A stretch of 15,925 nucleotides of DNA, taken from a candidate division WOR-3 bacterium (lineage in GTDB: Bacteria; Hydrothermota; Hydrothermia; Hydrothermales; Hydrothermaceae). The stretch is from NCBI GenBank assembly GCA_039803745.1, contig JBDRZD010000042.1, positions 1 to 15,925 on the forward strand, read 5' to 3'. Position 1 is the stretch's first letter; each line of letters begins with the position of its first letter. The notes under the pieces are model-generated. The model saw nothing but the letters and a program-made list of their open reading frames with translations, made no database searches and was not told where the DNA came from. The translations under genes and the position numbers were made by a program. Shown in pieces: positions 2,022 through 14,302 of this stretch.

Positions 2022-3137
2022 CTAAATTTTTATTTCTTCAACTGGGAATCCTTCTGCCCATGTGTATTTTCTTATAAATTTTCCATTTTTTATATATGTT
2101 CCTTTATAAATTGCAGGATTCTCAAAAATTGTTTTTTCTATACCTTTTTTTGCCATTTCTTTTAAATATGGAATAATCGCATTATTTATACCATGAGAAG
2201 CAGTTCTTGCAACAAAGGAAGGAACATTTGGAACACAGAAATGTATAATACCTTCTTCTTTATAAACATAGGTTTCATCAGGGGTCGGCCTTGATGTCTC
2301 TGAACATCCTCCTCTATCAATTGAAAAATCTATAAAAACACCTCCATCCCTCATTTTCTTCAGCATCTCTCTTTTAATAACAATCGGAGCCCTTTCACCG
2401 GGAATCTGAACCGCTCCAATTAAAACTTCAGCAAAAGAGACAAATTTTTCAATATTTTTGGCTGTTGCATAAGCAGTTATAACTCTTCCATCAAAAAGCA
2501 AATCAATTTCTTCGAGCCTTCTTGTATTTACATCAAGAATATAAACAGTAGCACCAAGCCCAAGGAAACTCCTCGCTGCATAATATCCAAGTGTTCCACC
2601 TCCAACAATAACAACATCAGCAGGGGGTATCCCTGTTAATCCACCTATTAAAATTCCGAGACCGCCTCTTGTTATTTCTAAATATCTCCCAGCAATCTGA
2701 GGGGCAAGTTTTCCTGCTATCTCAGAAGAAATTCTTAAAACTGGATAAATCCCCTTTTCTTCAATTCCTTCAAAACCTATTACTGTTAATTTTTTCTGTA
2801 TATATTTTTCAATAATCTTTTTTGGTACTATAAAAATATCTTGAAAGGAAAATACCGTTTGTCCCTCAGAAAGTAAATCGATTTCTTCTTCCTTTGGAGG
2901 GCTTATTTTAAGCACAATATCTCCTCTTTTAAAAGCCTCTTCCTTTGAAAAAACTATTTGAGCACCTGCATGGGTATATTCTTCATCAGAAAACCCAAGG
3001 TCCTTTCCTGCATCTTTTTCAATATAAATTTTAACTCCATATTCATTTAATTCCTTTACACCTGCAGGTGTTAGTGGTACCCTCCTTTCAATTGAACCCC
3101 TATATCTCTCTTCCTTTGGTATTGAAATTGAAAGCAT
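2022..3137 (-). CDS. ald: Alanine dehydrogenase-like protein (AlaDH/PNT family) with a divergent active site
   Basis: Motifs IPKE..ERRVPLTPAGV, SEIAGKLA, GGLGILIGG, Rossmann VVIVGGGTLG, IGAVQIPG, IDRGGCSETSRPT, CVPNVP. SD AAGGAGGTG at 3140-3148 (minus). Canonical KVKEP and FLH motifs are altered (see findings). Confidence 0.8.
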   Translation of the reverse strand: MLSISIPKEERYRGSIERRVPLTPAGVKELNEYGVKIYIEKDAGKDLGFSDEEYTHAGAQIVFSKEEAFKRGDIVLKISPPKEEEIDLLSEGQTVFSFQDIFIVPKKIIEKYIQKKLTVIGFEGIEEKGIYPVLRISSEIAGKLAPQIAGRYLEITRGGLGILIGGLTGIPPADVVIVGGGTLGYYAARSFLGLGATVYILDVNTRRLEEIDLLFDGRVITAYATAKNIEKFVSFAEVLIGAVQIPGERAPIVIKREMLKKMRDGGVFIDFSIDRGGCSETSRPTPDETYVYKEEGIIHFCVPNVPSFVARTASHGINNAIIPYLKEMAKKGIEKTIFENPAIYKGTYIKNGKFIRKYTWAEGFPVEEIKI

Positions 3138-7184: not shown

Positions 7185-8351
7185 TTATATACCCTTCATT
7201 CCAATTAATTTCATTATTCTTCCAAGTGCTATCATATAAGAGGATTTTTTAATGGAAAGATTCTTAGCAATGCCTATTCCAAGGATATCTCTATAAACTT
7301 CAACCAATTTTTTCTTTACTTTTAAAAGGATTTCTTCATCTTTGATATTTTCCTTACCTTTTAAATGTTCCTCAAAGTAAATGGAATTTAAAATTCCTTT
7401 AATAAAAATATCAGGAAGAAGAGCAATATTTCTTTTGGCAAGCACTTCTTCTGCATGGGGTTCTACCCCAAAAAATTTCATCTCTATTACATATCTTGAA
7501 TTCAAAAAATCAGCCTTCTCTTTTTTTAAACTTTCAACAGATCCTGATATTATAAAAATATCACTTTCATAATTTATCATTTCTTCTTTTAAAATTCTTA
7601 TAAATTTTGACCTTATTTTATCTTCAACACTTAAATATCTTTCTTCCTCCATATCTATTATAAAATTTTTAACACCTTCTTGATAAAGTTTTTCAATAAG
7701 CAAATTAGAATATCTATCAAAACCATAAAATGTAACCCTTTTATCCTTTATCTTCTCTCCATAATCTTCAAGCATTGTTTCTATACCAAAAATCAACGCA
7801 TCACAGAAAATATTATCAATTTGTGAAAAACCGTATATAGAAGGTGGTTTTCCAAGAAGCTGGGTATAAGAGTTTAAACTTTTCCTTGAAATCTCATCAT
7901 ATAAAATCATCATTGACTCCTCATTAATTCCTTCACCTTTTACAAATAAAGAATTTTTAAAATAATCTGATTCAAAAATAATTTCAAATATGTTTTTAAA
8001 AATTATTTTTCTTTCCCATAAACTGTAATTATCTTCTGAAATTCCTATCTTTATACACATGCCACCAAAAGGAAAATCAAACAAAGAGTTGGAAAAAACA
8101 TTTAAAAAAGCAATAAGGGGAACTTCATGAAAATCTTCTTTTAAATAAATTTCACCAAAATAAGGACCTTTAATCTTTGATGCAAAAAATGCTTCCCAAT
8201 CAATTTTTACAAATTCGCCCCTCCTTCTTTCAAAAGGAAGAAAGAATTTTAAATAAGCATCTCCTTTCCCGATAAATTCAACAAATTTTTCTGAAATTCC
8301 TAAATTTTTTGCACTTACTTTTAAATAAAAATCTACATAATCTCTTTTCAT
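7185..8351 (-). CDS. Glu/Leu/Phe/Val dehydrogenase-fold protein, predicted catalytically inactive (pseudo-GDH)
   Basis: Colinear with GDH by eye: KGPYFGEI (GPxKGGI), FPFGGMC (LPFGGxKGG), LLGKP, KRVTFYGF (VAVQGFG), AEEVLAKRNIALLPDI (ADEIL..RGI.V.PDI), IYFE (SYFE), SSYMIALGRI (AAY..A..RV). Catalytic residues are substituted. Confidence 0.8.
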   Translation of the reverse strand: MKRDYVDFYLKVSAKNLGISEKFVEFIGKGDAYLKFFLPFERRRGEFVKIDWEAFFASKIKGPYFGEIYLKEDFHEVPLIAFLNVFSNSLFDFPFGGMCIKIGISEDNYSLWERKIIFKNIFEIIFESDYFKNSLFVKGEGINEESMMILYDEISRKSLNSYTQLLGKPPSIYGFSQIDNIFCDALIFGIETMLEDYGEKIKDKRVTFYGFDRYSNLLIEKLYQEGVKNFIIDMEEERYLSVEDKIRSKFIRILKEEMINYESDIFIISGSVESLKKEKADFLNSRYVIEMKFFGVEPHAEEVLAKRNIALLPDIFIKGILNSIYFEEHLKGKENIKDEEILLKVKKKLVEVYRDILGIGIAKNLSIKKSSYMIALGRIMKLIGMKGI

Positions 8352-8404
8352 TTTTATAATTTTAAAGCAATATAATAAAAGTCTTCAAACAAAAGGAGGA
8401 AGAG
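8352..8404. promoter_or_regulatory. Overlapping divergent promoters for pseudo-GDH (minus) and rocD (plus)
   Basis: Minus strand: TTGAAG (8383-8388), 18 nt, TAAAAT (8359-8364), 7 nt, ATG. Plus strand: TATAAT at 8355-8360 and 8371-8376, and SD AGGAGG at 8394-8399. Confidence 0.55.
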
Positions 8405-9652
8405 ATGTTAAAAGAAATTATGGAAAGAGGGATTGAGGGAATTTTAAAAAATTTATCACAAGAGGAAATAATAAAAATTACAGAAAAATATGGTGCCCAT
8501 AACTATAAACCATTAAAAGTCGTCATTACAAAAGGGAAAGGAGCATATGTATGGGATAAAGAAGGAAATAAATATCTTGATTGTATAGGATGTTATTCAG
8601 CAGTCTCTCATGGCCATTTGAATAAGAATATAATAAATTCTGCAATAAAACAGATGAAAAAATTAACTTTAACAGGAAGACCTGTTTATACAGAAGAACT
8701 TGCGATTTTCTTTAAAGTTTTATCAGAATATACAAAGATGGATATGGTTTTACCAATGAATACAGGAGCAGAGGCAGTGGAAACTGCGATAAAGGCTGCA
8801 AGAAGATGGGGATATTTTAAAAAGAAAGTTGAAGAAGACAAAGCTGAAATAATTGCCTGTGAAAAAAATTTTCATGGCAGAACAGTAACAATAGTAGGCT
8901 TTTCAACAGAAGAGGGCTATAGAAAAGGATTCGGACCTTTTACTCCTGGTTTTAAAATAATACCTTATGCAGATCCTGATGCTTTAAAAAAAGCCATTAC
9001 AAAAAATACAGTTGCATTTTTAGTTGAACCAATTCAAGCAGAAGGTGGAGTTATAATCCCATATGATGGTTATTTAAAAGATATAAGAAAAATATGTGAT
9101 GAAGAAAACATTCTTTTAATATTTGATGAAATACAGACAGGGTTTGGAAGAACAGGTAAAAGGTTTGCATGGGAATGGGAGAATGCAAAACCTGATTTAA
9201 TCACACTTGGGAAAGCGCTTGGTGGTGGAATATTTCCTGTTTCAGCAGTTGCAGGGAAAAAAGAAGTAATGGAAGTATTTGATCCGGGTTCACATGGAAG
9301 CACATTTGGCGGGAATCCACTTGGAGTAAGAATAGCAATTGAAGCAATTTTAGAAATGGAAAGATTGAAATTGCATGAAAATTCAAGGAAAATGGGTGAA
9401 AAACTTTTAAAAGGATTAAAAGAGATAAAAAGTGATATAATAAAAGAAGTAAGGGGAAAAGGACTTTTAATAGGAGTTGAAATAAAAGAAGAAGCAGGGG
9501 AAGGAATGAAATATGCAGAGATGCTTTTAAAAGAAGGAATAATCACAAAAGATACTCATAAATATACCTTAAGAATAACACCCCCTTTAATCATAGGAGA
9601 AAAAGAAGTTGATTTAATTTTAAAAGCCTTTAAAAAAGTTTTTGAAAAATAA
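8405..9652 (+). CDS. rocD: Ornithine--oxo-acid aminotransferase (class III PLP enzyme)
   Basis: OAT-type motifs YGAHNYKPL, YSAVSHGH, LPMNTGAEAVETA.KAARRWGY, NFHGRT, GFGPFTPGF, DEIQTGFGRTG, LGKAL.GG (PLP Lys), HGSTFGGNPL. Confidence 0.93.
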   Translation: MLKEIMERGIEGILKNLSQEEIIKITEKYGAHNYKPLKVVITKGKGAYVWDKEGNKYLDCIGCYSAVSHGHLNKNIINSAIKQMKKLTLTGRPVYTEELAIFFKVLSEYTKMDMVLPMNTGAEAVETAIKAARRWGYFKKKVEEDKAEIIACEKNFHGRTVTIVGFSTEEGYRKGFGPFTPGFKIIPYADPDALKKAITKNTVAFLVEPIQAEGGVIIPYDGYLKDIRKICDEENILLIFDEIQTGFGRTGKRFAWEWENAKPDLITLGKALGGGIFPVSAVAGKKEVMEVFDPGSHGSTFGGNPLGVRIAIEAILEMERLKLHENSRKMGEKLLKGLKEIKSDIIKEVRGKGLLIGVEIKEEAGEGMKYAEMLLKEGIITKDTHKYTLRITPPLIIGEKEVDLILKAFKKVFEK

Positions 9653-9655
9653 AAT

Positions 9656-10912
9656 TTGAATACAATTTTAATCACAATATTTTTAAATTATTTGGGAGTT
9701 GAATGGCAAAAAACATATGGAGGTATACTTGATGAAGCAGGTTTTTCCCTTGTTGAATCAAATGACTCTCATTATATCATACTCGGAAATACCCACTCTT
9801 TTGGTAATGGTGGTTCTGATATTTACATTATTAAAATAAATAAAAATGGTGATACTCTCTGGACAAAATTTTATGGAACACAGAATGACGAATTTTCCCA
9901 TTCTATAAAAGAATATAATGGAAACTATATAATTGTGGGAAATACACAACTTCCAGATTCTTCAGAAAGTGATATTTATATTTTAAAAATTAACAAAAAT
10001 GGGAATTTAATATTTGAGGAAATAATAGAGACCCCATCCTGGGAATATCCAAGGGATTTTGAAATTTCAGAAAACGGTGATATTATAATCGCAGGCTCTA
10101 TAAAACCTGAGGGTGGAGATTTTAATCTCTATGTCTCAAAAATTGATTCCCTCGGTAATATGATATGGCAAAAAAGGTATGGCGGGAATGCCGATGATTT
10201 TGGGTATTCTATTTGTAAAACAGAAAATGGGTATATGATAGTTGGTTATACCTTTTCCTTTGGAAACGGTGGTTCTGATATCTATTTAATAAAAATAAAT
10301 GAAAATGGTGATACTTTATGGACAAACACATTTGGTAGAGAAGAAAACGACTACGGATTTTTCATAGCAAAAGATGATGATGGAAATTATATCATATGTG
10401 GTTCTTCTTATTGGTTATTATTAGGCTATGAAATATGCTATATGAAAATTTCACCTGATGGAAATTCCATATGGCAAAAATATAATGGAAGTTTAAGCAA
10501 TGACTTTGCATGGTGCATGGGAAAAACATATGACAATGGATATGTTATAACAGGAAATTTTGGAACACTTGTATGGCTTTTAAAAACTGATTCTATTGGA
10601 CTCCCCTTATGGTCAGAAATGTATGGAGGGAATGGATTTGAAACAGGTTATTTTATAAAAGTATTAAAAGATACTTCTTATATAATTGTCGGAAAAACAA
10701 ATTCTTTCGGGGCAGGTGGTTATGATGTTTATGTAATAAAGACGACGAAAGATATCAAGGTTAAAGAAAAAATAAAACTTTATAACCGTAAAATTTCAAA
10801 AGAATTAAAAATATTTGATATATCCGGGAAAAAAATTTTAAAACCAGAAAAAAAGGGAATCTATTTTAAAATTTTAAATACCAGTAAAGAAAAATTGATA
10901 ATAATAAAATAA
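9656..10912 (+). CDS. Secreted 7-bladed beta-propeller repeat protein with a T9SS type A-like C-terminal sorting tail
   Basis: Seven ~50-aa repeats W.K.YGG...D.G.S....YII.G......D(I/V)Y.IK...NG, a hydrophobic N-terminus, and C-terminal KIFDISGK...KKGIYF...KLIIIK. The TTG start is uncertain (no SD). Confidence 0.75.
   Translation: MNTILITIFLNYLGVEWQKTYGGILDEAGFSLVESNDSHYIILGNTHSFGNGGSDIYIIKINKNGDTLWTKFYGTQNDEFSHSIKEYNGNYIIVGNTQLPDSSESDIYILKINKNGNLIFEEIIETPSWEYPRDFEISENGDIIIAGSIKPEGGDFNLYVSKIDSLGNMIWQKRYGGNADDFGYSICKTENGYMIVGYTFSFGNGGSDIYLIKINENGDTLWTNTFGREENDYGFFIAKDDDGNYIICGSSYWLLLGYEICYMKISPDGNSIWQKYNGSLSNDFAWCMGKTYDNGYVITGNFGTLVWLLKTDSIGLPLWSEMYGGNGFETGYFIKVLKDTSYIIVGKTNSFGAGGYDVYVIKTTKDIKVKEKIKLYNRKISKELKIFDISGKKILKPEKKGIYFKILNTSKEKLIIIK
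9797..10326 (+). repeat. Intragenic direct repeat (9797-9867 and 10256-10326)
   Basis: SFGNGGSDIYIIKINKNGDTLWT vs SFGNGGSDIYLIKINENGDTLWT (21/23 aa identical), offset 459 nt. Confidence 0.85.
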
Positions 10913-13111: not shown

Positions 13112-14302
13112 ATGAAAAGAACAATTCTCATCCTCTTTTTTATTTTTACAGGTATAGGTAAAAGATATGAAAAGGAGTATCCTAATAATGTATGGGAAGG
13201 AATTAACCAATTTTGTTTTAATTTTTATTTTGAATTAAAGGATAAAGAAGAAAATATACTTTTTTCTCCATTTAGTATAACTTCTGCTTTTTTGATAGTT
13301 TATGAAGGAGCAAGAGGTAATACAAAAGAAGAAATTGAAAAAGTTTTCTTTTTCCAAAAGGATGAAAAATTGAGAAGGGATAAATTCAATAAAATTTTAA
13401 GAGAAATAAATAAAAGTAGTAAAAAATATGAATTTTGTGTTGCAAATGCATTATGGGTTCAAAAGAATTTCAAAATTTTGAAAGAATATCTCAATATAAG
13501 TCAAAAATTTTATTTCTCATTTATAAAAAACCTTGATTTTATAAAAGAACCTGAAAAATCGGTAAGAGTTATAAACTCCTGGATTTCCAAAAAAACCAAG
13601 AGGAAAATAAAAGAACTTATCTCAAAGGACATAATAACCCCTCTTACAAGAGTTATTATAACCAGCGTAATATTTTTTAAAGGGAAATGGTTAAAAGAGT
13701 TTGATAAGAAGAATACAAAAGAAGAAGACTTTATAATTTCTGAAAATAAAAAAGTTAAGGTAAACATGATGAGAATGGAAAAGGAGATTTTTAACTATTA
13801 TGAGGATAAAAAAATTCAGGTTCTTGAAATGCCTTATGATGGAGAAGAAATTTCAATGTTCATATTTTTACCAAAAAATTTTGAGATAGATTCAATAGAT
13901 GAATATATAAATTATGAAAAATTTAAAGAAATAAGGGAAAGTATGAAAAAAGAAGAAATTGATATTTATATTCCAAAATTTAAAATGGAAACAAAATGCT
14001 CACTGAATACATATCTCCAGAATATGGGGATAAAAGATGCCTTTTCAGATACTGAAGCAGATTTTTCAGGTATAACAGGTAAAAGGGAACTATATATAAG
14101 CCATGCACTTCATAAAGCATTTATTGAAGTAAATGAAGAAGGAACAGAAGCAACAGCAGCAACAGGAATTGTTATGGAATTAAAGGCAGTAATAAAAAGG
14201 AAAATTTTTCGGGCAGATCATCCTTTCATATTCTTAATCTATGATAAAAAAACTGAAAATATAATATTTTTTGGAAGAATCATAAATCCTGAAAGATTAT
14301 GA
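13112..14302 (+). CDS. Serpin (serine protease inhibitor, I4 family), probably exported
   Basis: Motifs NILFSPFSI, GARGNT, ANALW, INSWISKKT, FFKGKW..EF, LEMPY, IPKFK, ADFSGI, hinge EVNEEGTEATAAT, FRADHPFIFLI, IIFFGRI. Basic then hydrophobic N-terminus. Confidence 0.96.
   Translation: MKRTILILFFIFTGIGKRYEKEYPNNVWEGINQFCFNFYFELKDKEENILFSPFSITSAFLIVYEGARGNTKEEIEKVFFFQKDEKLRRDKFNKILREINKSSKKYEFCVANALWVQKNFKILKEYLNISQKFYFSFIKNLDFIKEPEKSVRVINSWISKKTKRKIKELISKDIITPLTRVIITSVIFFKGKWLKEFDKKNTKEEDFIISENKKVKVNMMRMEKEIFNYYEDKKIQVLEMPYDGEEISMFIFLPKNFEIDSIDEYINYEKFKEIRESMKKEEIDIYIPKFKMETKCSLNTYLQNMGIKDAFSDTEADFSGITGKRELYISHALHKAFIEVNEEGTEATAATGIVMELKAVIKRKIFRADHPFIFLIYDKKTENIIFFGRIINPERL

Follow-up and report, generated by a model that had tools for sequence, protein, structure and literature searches.

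A predicted glutamate dehydrogenase-fold pseudoenzyme is encoded next to a cyclic-nucleotide-binding protein in a narrow family of thermophilic WOR-3 bacteria

Contig JBDRZD010000042.1 of a candidate division WOR-3 bacterium (GenBank assembly GCA_039803745.1) was analyzed over its entire 15,925 nt, hereafter the window. It carries a gene, pGDH, whose 388-aa product (P0001) appears to have kept the fold of glutamate dehydrogenase (GDH), an enzyme where the metabolism of carbon meets that of nitrogen, and has lost the motifs by which a GDH works. Our analysis shows purifying selection on pGDH and finds that it is inherited, degraded, and missing together with the gene that follows it, which encodes a stand-alone cyclic nucleotide monophosphate (cNMP)-binding protein (the partner). 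We propose, at what we judge to be even chances, that pGDH is a non-catalytic GDH-fold subunit that, along with a cNMP sensor, controls the breakdown of glutamate or ornithine.

Genome G000 (1.67 Mb in 100 contigs, 93% complete) has the window as its complete contig C42. This genome belongs to a narrow family of thermophilic WOR-3 bacteria around Ca. Hydrothermus pacificus (f1), of which five genomes (G000 to G004) were examined. G003 is a congener of G000 (84% amino acid identity between their pGDH proteins), G002 belongs to the same genus and is 75% complete, and G001 is 93% complete. The sister family is denoted f2.

pGDH has lost the motifs of a glutamate dehydrogenase

The 388-codon open reading frame (ORF) of pGDH begins with ATG and ends with TAA, and it exists on the minus strand only, the plus strand of the same interval being riddled with stops. 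Its G+C content of 0.25 is the lowest in its neighborhood (0.30 to 0.34 elsewhere). A phmmer search of PDB sequences returned 40 GDH chains at E values up to 1, the best between 3.7e-16 and 7.6e-16, and the alignment to 1bvu is colinear across pGDH residues 10 to 383. An earlier note on this DNA, made from its letters, had described a full-length ORF colinear with hexameric GDHs; both this match and the multiple alignment below bear that out, with the gene on the minus strand. The hidden Markov model searches suggested in the same note gave a divided answer. ELFV_dehydrog (PF00208) matches at 33.7 bits (cut-off 23.4; E = 4e-8) over residues 242 to 383 only, whereas ELFV_dehydrog_N (PF02812) reaches 17.0 bits, below its cut-off of 25.3. 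Among the eight clusters of pGDH orthologues described below, precomputed matches to PF00208 exist for all eight and to PF02812 for two (P0007 and P0009), and the G004 copy scores 38.5 bits with the latter. The NCBIfam GDH equivalog models are far out of reach for pGDH (NF040817, 62.8 bits vs a cut-off of 750; NF041398, 53 vs 620); on the same models, the canonical GDH of G000 scores 657.8 and 476.3 bits. The Pfam and NCBIfam scan of pGDH matched only GDH relatives.

In canonical GDHs, a set of three lysines, an aspartate, an arginine, and a serine holds glutamate or 2-oxoglutarate and performs catalysis, the lysines of GPxKGG and MTWK contacting the substrate carboxylate, and a GxGxxG motif forms the dinucleotide loop. 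We located these positions in a 126-row alignment (A3), using the canonical GDH of G000 (contig C72) as the ruler. Besides this protein, A3 holds pGDH, its eight orthologue clusters, two degenerate GDH-like proteins of the sister family, and 114 of 149 further profile hits, rows far shorter or longer than a GDH having been left out. When pGDH is read against the canonical GDH and the 114 other GDH-family hits, every motif change that the earlier note had listed is present (Table 1).

Table 1. GDH motifs and their counterparts in pGDH, as aligned with the canonical GDH in A3
Canonical motif	pGDH counterpart
GPxKGG	G62-P-Y-F65-G-E67
MTWK	N84-V-F-S87
GGxKGG	G96-G-M-C99-I-K101
PAPD	F136-V-K-G139
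GGSxGR	Y-G-F-S-Q-I178
GxGxxG	G210-F-D212-R-Y-S215
E(L/G)AN	E290-M-K-F293
PDxxANAGGxxxS	P313-D-I-F-I-K-G-I320-L321-N-S-I-Y325

The replacements are largely fixed in the family alignment, which comprises nine mutually related rows (pGDH of the window and the eight orthologue clusters). The position of the catalytic lysine in GGxKGG is Cys99 in all nine, vs a lysine in 95 of 115 other rows. The remaining key positions read F65, S87 (alanine in two rows), G139 (serine in one), I178 (phenylalanine in three), and Y325, and position 293 varies as well. The dinucleotide loop reads G210-F-D212-(R/K)-Y-S215 in 9/9 rows, and no conserved acidic residue after strand 2 was found in them, position 234 being D, N, or S. 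Bulky hydrophobic residues take the place of the Gly-rich PDxxANAGG loop. The earlier note had allowed that K101 might restore activity. This residue is K in seven rows, N in one, and S in one; because it is not conserved, K101 does not qualify as a rescue lysine and is ruled out as a conserved functional residue.

pGDH shares with canonical hexameric GDHs (ELFV_dehydrog_N plus ELFV_dehydrog; NF040817) a predicted two-domain fold and colinearity from end to end, and it retains structural glycines and prolines, G167-K168, D264, E290, P313-D314, and E328. It differs from them in the replacement of the three lysines, the aspartate, the arginine, the serine, the GxGxxG motif, and the ANAGG loop, and it is only 16% to 17% identical to the canonical GDH of its own genome. 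Judged from these residues, pGDH cannot be a GDH, as the catalytic, substrate-binding, and dinucleotide motifs are all replaced.

The GDH fold is predicted over the whole length

AlphaFold2 (AF2) run on the 126-row alignment gave a model with a pLDDT of 94.4 and a pTM of 0.93, in an alignment dominated by canonical GDHs, which biases the model toward their fold. Run on the nine family rows alone, it gave a mean pLDDT of 61.4, with the N-terminal 105 residues below 50. A Foldseek search of the PDB with the AF2 model found 8owm as the best match (E = 7.7e-27, TM 0.88/0.83, 412 aligned columns, 17% identity), and the matches listed were GDH-family structures only. An independent, single-sequence model of the exact pGDH protein in the ESM Atlas has a pTM of 0.89, and its nearest neighbor is a GDH cluster (TM 0.91, residues 1 to 388). 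The structure prediction called for in the earlier note therefore returned a GDH fold, and the models indicate that pGDH keeps the two-domain fold over its whole length.

pGDH is under purifying selection in a very narrow family

A homologous-protein search found the eight clusters of pGDH orthologues to be intact, 388 to 390 aa long, and 53% to 99% identical. In the family alignment, 131 of 388 positions are invariant, including many replacement residues (Y64, F65, G66, and E67; F82, L83, and N84; N88; P94 to C99; T207 to D212; Y214 and S215; E290 and K292; G319 to N322). Invariance is commoner at the former motif positions than elsewhere in the protein (25/50 vs 106/338; Fisher p = 0.015), a comparison that is indicative only, as the rows are kin. 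By the share of invariant positions, constraint is tightest in the N-terminal (oligomerization) domain (44%) and the C-terminal helices (43%).

With the congener G003 as reference, the dN/dS of pGDH is 0.146 by the NG86 method and 0.126 by YN00, at a dS of 0.54 to 0.64. By region (NG86), it is 0.157 for residues 1 to 105, 0.226 for 106 to 195, 0.156 for 196 to 312, and 0.054 for 313 to 388; the same measure gives 0.141 for the cNMP-binding neighbor, 0.086 for the M50 protease, 0.063 for FolD, and 0.057 for the ornithine--oxo-acid transaminase (OAT). Altogether, these values indicate purifying selection on the pGDH of the window, with both domains constrained and the C-terminal helices most. 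The comparison of orthologues and dN/dS that the earlier note had proposed thus came out on the side of selection, with eight intact clusters, a dN/dS of 0.126 to 0.146, and all four regions below 0.23. Its central claim, that of a selected pseudoenzyme rather than a decaying pseudogene, is supported by these ratios, by the predicted fold, and by replacements that are invariant in nine of nine rows, apart from the S/A, G/S, and I/F exchanges and position 293.

The family is narrow. When a profile of the nine rows was searched against 1.84 billion cluster representatives, a single family cluster (at 50% identity) was found at 712 bits, the next match scoring 107.5. Among 61 related genomes, family-level matches (E of 4e-122 or better) occur only in f1, namely in G000, G003, and G004 and as a broken copy in G002; the remaining matches, at E of 6e-15 or worse, are canonical or otherwise divergent GDHs. 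In a quick maximum-likelihood tree, the pGDH family forms a clade (SH-aLRT 100) with a stem of 2.4 substitutions per site and internal branches of at most 0.28. The tree, which has many long branches and drew warnings on composition, puts the family in a polytomy among the GDHs and does not join it to the 385-aa GDH-like proteins of f2. The window stretch occurs in hot-spring metagenomes of several studies. Contigs from four further hot-spring studies are 95% to 100% alike, none spanning the whole stretch, and have no indels in pGDH; their eight pGDH differences, mostly at a depth below 5, comprise four synonymous changes and four that are not (E351G, K202R, M193V, and E144D).

The earlier note had also advised looking for a canonical gdh elsewhere in the genome, and one was found on contig C72. 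Such a gene is present in all five f1 genomes. It is unlinked to pGDH, lying on C72 vs C42 in G000 and on C6 vs C2 in G004.

pGDH is genetically coupled to the gene of a cNMP-binding protein

The partner belongs to the Pfam family cNMP_binding (PF00027; 64.8 bits vs a cut-off of 27.5), and its family profile matches the cyclic nucleotide-binding (CNB) domains of PKG and of PKA R subunits at E = 5e-21. It consists of a single cNMP-binding domain and a tail of some 45 residues that matched nothing, and it is 168 to 171 aa long among loci. CNB domains bind phosphate through a cassette with the consensus G-E...R-S-A-T. Across 12 rows of the partner family, this cassette always has G79, E80, R89, A91, and T92, with either S or T at position 90.

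The spacing from pGDH to the partner gene is 1 nt in G000 and 0 nt in both G003 and G004, the three intact loci for which DNA is available, and an RBS (ribosome-binding site)-like GAAGGG sits within the 3' end of pGDH. We found 11 partner homologues, 69% to 99% identical; six of them lie on contigs equal in size to contigs that carry pGDH orthologues (39630, 6106, 39117, 55836, 25977, and 2016). G000 encodes three class III cyclase domains and four cNMP-binding ORFs. With PADLOC, the partner gave domain-level matches to PycTIR and to Pycsar CNB effectors (E 3e-9 to 1e-5).

Complex prediction for pGDH and the partner lent weak support to their association, with a score of 0.37 (runs of 0.37, 0.00, and 0.47) vs 0.00 for the best of three controls. 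The runs agree in at least 0% of contacts, and the pLDDT of the partner is at least 76. As a yardstick, 116 of 157 solved complexes attain the mark, as do two of 215 mismatched pairs; scores of 0.60 or less that pass it come from only 18 of the 157 solved complexes and from both passing mismatched pairs. The tool itself rates a pass of this sort as wrong more often than right unless the prior guess was likely, and here the genetic coupling of the two genes provides a reasonable prior.

The two genes are broken together in a close strain

In G002, pGDH is 98% to 99% identical at the DNA level and carries a CAG-to-TAG change at codon 164 and, at nt 665, a deletion of 1 nt. The partner gene of the same genome has four indels (deletions of 39 nt and of 1 nt and two insertions of 1 nt each), and FolD, M50, and OAT on the G002 contigs differ by substitutions only. 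The G002 assembly (C57/C131) breaks inside the pGDH gene, at window positions 7547 to 7551, and its contigs are 96% vs 99% identical to the window. These data suggest strain mixing at a locus of G002 where the pGDH and cNMP genes are pseudogenes.

Similar lesions are found in other assemblies. A truncated pGDH of 163 aa occurs in two different ones (P0171 and P0179, with several residue differences), once on a 21.9-kb contig that also encodes a 106-aa C-terminal piece; on account of that piece, this truncation is not a contig-end artifact. P0180 has a frameshift near residue 118. Six full-length pGDH variants coexist with the broken alleles in the same 90% cluster. In G001, the search for orthologues of pGDH, the partner, and OAT came up empty, on an assembly whose syntenic contig stops right after the M50 gene, which leaves the absence unproven. 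These data display what decay of a copy looks like, and the copy in the window is unlike that; they also show the two genes decaying together. The earlier note had named frameshifted orthologues or a dN/dS near 1 as grounds for giving up the selected-pseudoenzyme reading. Nonsense and frameshift alleles do exist in some close strains, while the dN/dS of 0.13 to 0.15 and the eight intact clusters speak the other way.

A conserved intergenic region separates pGDH from OAT

pGDH and OAT diverge from an intergenic region of 53 to 60 nt that is nearly invariant in the four genomes aligned, including one whose pGDH protein is only 53% identical. On the pGDH strand, the element TTGAAG-N18-TAAAAT is kept in four of four and stops 6 to 7 nt short of the pGDH ATG (7 nt in the window); no Shine-Dalgarno sequence for pGDH was found in the region. 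The OAT strand has TATAAT boxes and AAGGAGG. This looks like a conserved promoter from which pGDH would be transcribed as a leaderless or near-leaderless mRNA. A scan with promoter consensus sequences found 16 promoter-like sites vs 12.6 ± 3.5 in shuffled sequences, which is not significant, and a consensus terminator scan, itself not above shuffles, found none. The promoter that the earlier note had ascribed to the gene is therefore unsupported by the consensus scan and supported by conservation in four genomes.

All four f1 genomes with the locus keep the divergent arrangement with OAT, and the housekeeping neighbors of the locus are the same across two genera. OAT itself occurs in 37 of the 61 genomes of the class and has a different neighbor in f2. 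Since OAT is widespread and differently placed there, the pair of pGDH and the CNB protein is best seen as an f1-specific addition beside an older gene.

A proposed role for pGDH, its precedents, and its rivals

How pGDH might act is suggested by Thermus. Thermus GDH is reported to be made responsive to leucine and AMP by GdhA, a catalytically inactive regulatory GDH subunit, and by the APRT homologue APRTh, an inactive AMP sensor on GDH (bioRxiv 10.1101/2025.10.31.685773; PMC9570180). T. thermophilus GdhA, part of a GdhA/GdhB hetero-hexamer (PDB 3AOE), and pGDH are both GDH-fold paralogues without GDH activity (for pGDH, as its lost residues imply) in a thermophile genome that also encodes a catalytic GDH. 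In the same accounts, APRTh docks on the GDH complex as a separate small-molecule sensor, which parallels the role proposed here for the cNMP partner. Chain 3aoe_A matches the pGDH model at TM 0.85, and by sequence pGDH matches the two 3AOE chains weakly (E = 0.0043 and 0.063). Unlike GdhA, pGDH has lost every catalytic and cofactor motif, is about 30 residues shorter, has no linkage to the catalytic gdh, and is paired in its operon with a cNMP-binding protein in place of an APRT homologue. The precedent of GdhA invoked in the earlier note hence holds insofar as an inactive homologue accompanies a catalytic GDH in the genome, and it is loose as regards linkage and the cNMP coupling. In a literature search at the level of listings and abstracts, GdhA was the sole bacterial dead GDH paralogue serving as a regulator, and the papers on Hydrothermus or Hydrothermae were taxonomic or ecological only. 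A dead GDH paralogue as a regulator is a known kind; new are the cNMP-binding protein encoded in its operon, the joint decay of the two genes, the conservation of the divergent promoter, and a family of extreme narrowness.

By analogy with the inactive GdhA and APRT homologue of Thermus, pGDH would be the adaptor through which a cyclic-nucleotide sensor acts on GDH or, with lower probability, on OAT. We infer a complex in which the cNMP-binding protein would be the sensor and the dead GDH the scaffold or adaptor, and in which cyclic-nucleotide binding would change the action of the pair on a metabolic enzyme of the glutamate/ornithine node. The likeliest target would be the canonical GDH, through mixed oligomers such as those of GdhA and GdhB, and OAT would be the second candidate. 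Ligand-gated partner binding of this sort would follow the paradigm of PKA R subunits and stand-alone CNB proteins, to which the partner is tied by its CNB match and its kept cassette. It differs from R subunits in having a single CNB domain and a 45-residue tail without a match, and both its ligand and its partner are putative.

Several points weigh against this proposal. Nothing physically links the pair to GDH or OAT, and OAT has other neighbors outside f1. The complex prediction is weak and unstable, with one of three runs at 0.00 and no agreement in contacts. Evidence of co-occurrence comes from about nine related genomes or contigs of one narrow clade, which are not independent; the conserved adjacency of the two genes can be plain operon inheritance; and, as the broken alleles show, the module can be dispensed with in some populations. 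Finally, the invariant polar residues of the cleft (Y64, E67, N84, N88, C99, D212, K292, N322, and Y325) are also compatible with a ligand site or with a new active site. A more specific version, in which a cAMP- or cGMP-dependent complex of pGDH and the CNB protein inserts itself into the canonical GDH hexamer or docks on it (or on OAT) and so controls amino acid catabolism, we regard as doubtful. If true, it would be the first GDH controlled by a cyclic nucleotide through a dedicated pseudo-subunit. Together with the putative ADLP-CoA transferase pair and the degenerate GDH-like proteins from metagenomes described below, it would then suggest dehydrogenase-derived pseudoenzymes to be a common regulatory device in thermophiles.

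The nearest rival dispenses with the cNMP protein, taking it for a mere neighbor, and has pGDH form hetero-hexamers with the canonical GDH and tune its activity or allostery as GdhA does. The N-terminal domain and the C-terminal helices build the GDH hexamer, and these are the parts that are most conserved in pGDH (44% and 43% invariant; dN/dS of 0.054 for residues 313 to 388); moreover, all five f1 genomes have a canonical GDH and Thermus offers a precedent. In Thermus, however, gdhA and the catalytic gdh are adjacent, unlike pGDH and the canonical gene, and with 16% to 17% identity and a stem of 2.4 substitutions per site, the compatibility of the interfaces is uncertain. As this explanation also leaves the 0- to 1-nt coupling to the cNMP gene and the co-degradation unaccounted for, we consider it unlikely. 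We hold it to be quite unlikely that pGDH is instead a neofunctionalized enzyme or ligand-binding protein working without NAD(P), for example on a cationic or hydrophobic amino acid derivative tied to ornithine metabolism. A long stem followed by strong conservation would fit such a change of function, as would the excess of invariance at former motif positions (25/50 vs 106/338), the fixation of replacements in 9/9 rows, the conserved OAT neighbor within f1, and a remodeled cleft with invariant Cys99, Glu67, Asp212, Lys292, Tyr64/325, and Asn84/88/322. Yet no known catalytic constellation is recognizable in pGDH, no Pfam or NCBIfam family besides GDH relatives matches it, and the Gly-to-Ile/Leu changes I320 and L321, together with F65, I178, F293, and Y325, would, going by sequence, fill the cleft rather than line it.

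Two further explanations make less of the metabolic setting. In one, the genes form a defense-like module whose cNMP protein would sense a cyclic nucleotide alarm, as Pycsar effectors do, with the GDH-fold protein as the effector. The PADLOC matches of the partner, the patchy presence, and the broken alleles among close strains are in keeping with it. These matches, however, span the generic CNB domain only, pGDH matches no PADLOC model, no cyclase is adjacent to the pair, and the same housekeeping neighbors in two genera are unlike a defense island, which makes this account very improbable. In the other, the pGDH of the window would be a recently dead, functionless gene drifting toward loss, like the nonsense and frameshift alleles of close strains and in line with the lowest G+C content of the neighborhood (0.25 vs 0.30 to 0.34). 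We find this scarcely credible given a dN/dS of 0.13 to 0.15 at a dS of about 0.55, orthologues at 53% identity that keep the length and 131 invariant positions, and a frame that is intact in six full-length near-identical variants and free of indels in the contigs of four further studies.

As a pseudoenzyme, pGDH is far more radical than GdhA, all catalytic and cofactor motifs being gone while selection maintains fold and length. Pfam-based annotation will label it a Glu/Leu/Phe/Val dehydrogenase, and metabolic reconstructions of WOR-3 or Hydrothermus metagenome-assembled genomes may count a GDH that does not work. Its importance is limited by the narrowness of the family (one 50% cluster in 1.84 billion representatives) and by its loss in some strains.

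Other pseudoenzymes and features of the window

The window encodes a second dehydrogenase homologue, an "alanine dehydrogenase" (AlaDH) (Table 2). Its best PDB match (E = 6.5e-93) is the structure of Thermus ADLP, which a preprint describes as a homologue of AlaDH that is inactive and controls the CoA transferase next to it (bioRxiv 10.1101/2025.10.31.685773). Ser79 of the window protein occupies the position of ADLP Ala77, which is that of the catalytic lysine. With the CoA-transferase homologue beside it, the gene appears to make up an ADLP-CoA transferase-like regulatory pair of the kind characterized in Thermus. ADLP resembles pGDH in its logic, that of an amino acid dehydrogenase fold without the catalytic lysine acting on a neighboring enzyme; it differs in belonging to another fold family and, as the preprint reports, in keeping NAD(H) binding, whereas pGDH has no dinucleotide motif. 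The presence of such a pseudoenzyme-enzyme pair in the same window makes a regulatory role of pGDH more plausible.

Table 2. Features of the window
Feature	Position	Strand	Evidence or remark
CoA-transferase homologue	706-2013	minus	directly downstream of ADLP-type gene
ADLP-type "alanine dehydrogenase"	2022-3137	minus	TIGR00518 304.6 vs cut-off 391.85; best PDB match 9VAE
Stand-alone cNMP-binding protein, 168 aa	6677..7183	minus	Pfam cNMP_binding; start 1 nt past pGDH stop
pGDH, predicted 388-aa GDH-fold pseudoenzyme (P0001)	7185..8351	minus	ORF, homology, key residues, fold, dN/dS
Divergent intergenic region pGDH/OAT	8352..8404	.	53 nt; conserved TTGAAG-N18-TAAAAT on pGDH strand
Ornithine--oxo-acid transaminase (OAT)	8405..9652	plus	TIGR01885 484.8 bits vs cut-off 378.4
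418-aa protein	9656-10912	plus	TTG start, directly after OAT
Serpin, full length	13112-14302	plus	Pfam Serpin 394 bits

The sister family f2 holds a separate, second lineage of degenerate GDH-like proteins, 385 aa long (L013, 1072-2229, plus strand; L020, 1498-2655, minus strand; also L016 and L026). Their key positions read L/I, Q, S, E, R, and G-G-S, and they form a clade of their own apart from pGDH. The genes overlap dapF upstream and an S9-type hydrolase gene (product of at least 500 aa) downstream, which suggests one operon. In A3, 26 of 115 non-family rows, drawn from the profile hits P0010 to P0158, are without at least one of the three lysines or the aspartate (37 of 126 overall), in a sample biased by a query profile that is itself degenerate; P0106, for example, reads I-L-F-N at these four positions. 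GDH-fold proteins without catalytic residues nevertheless seem to have arisen repeatedly in uncultured bacteria.

Two further genes of the window are of separate interest. The 418-aa protein has sub-threshold Pfam matches only (DUF5122 and Lactonase) and contains repeated, beta-propeller-like units of the form ...GNGGSDIY(I/L)IKIN.NGD..W.... The serpin, from a bacterial thermophile, has an N-terminal hydrophobic stretch, and its gene sits where the window is richest in A+T (G+C 0.24 to 0.26).

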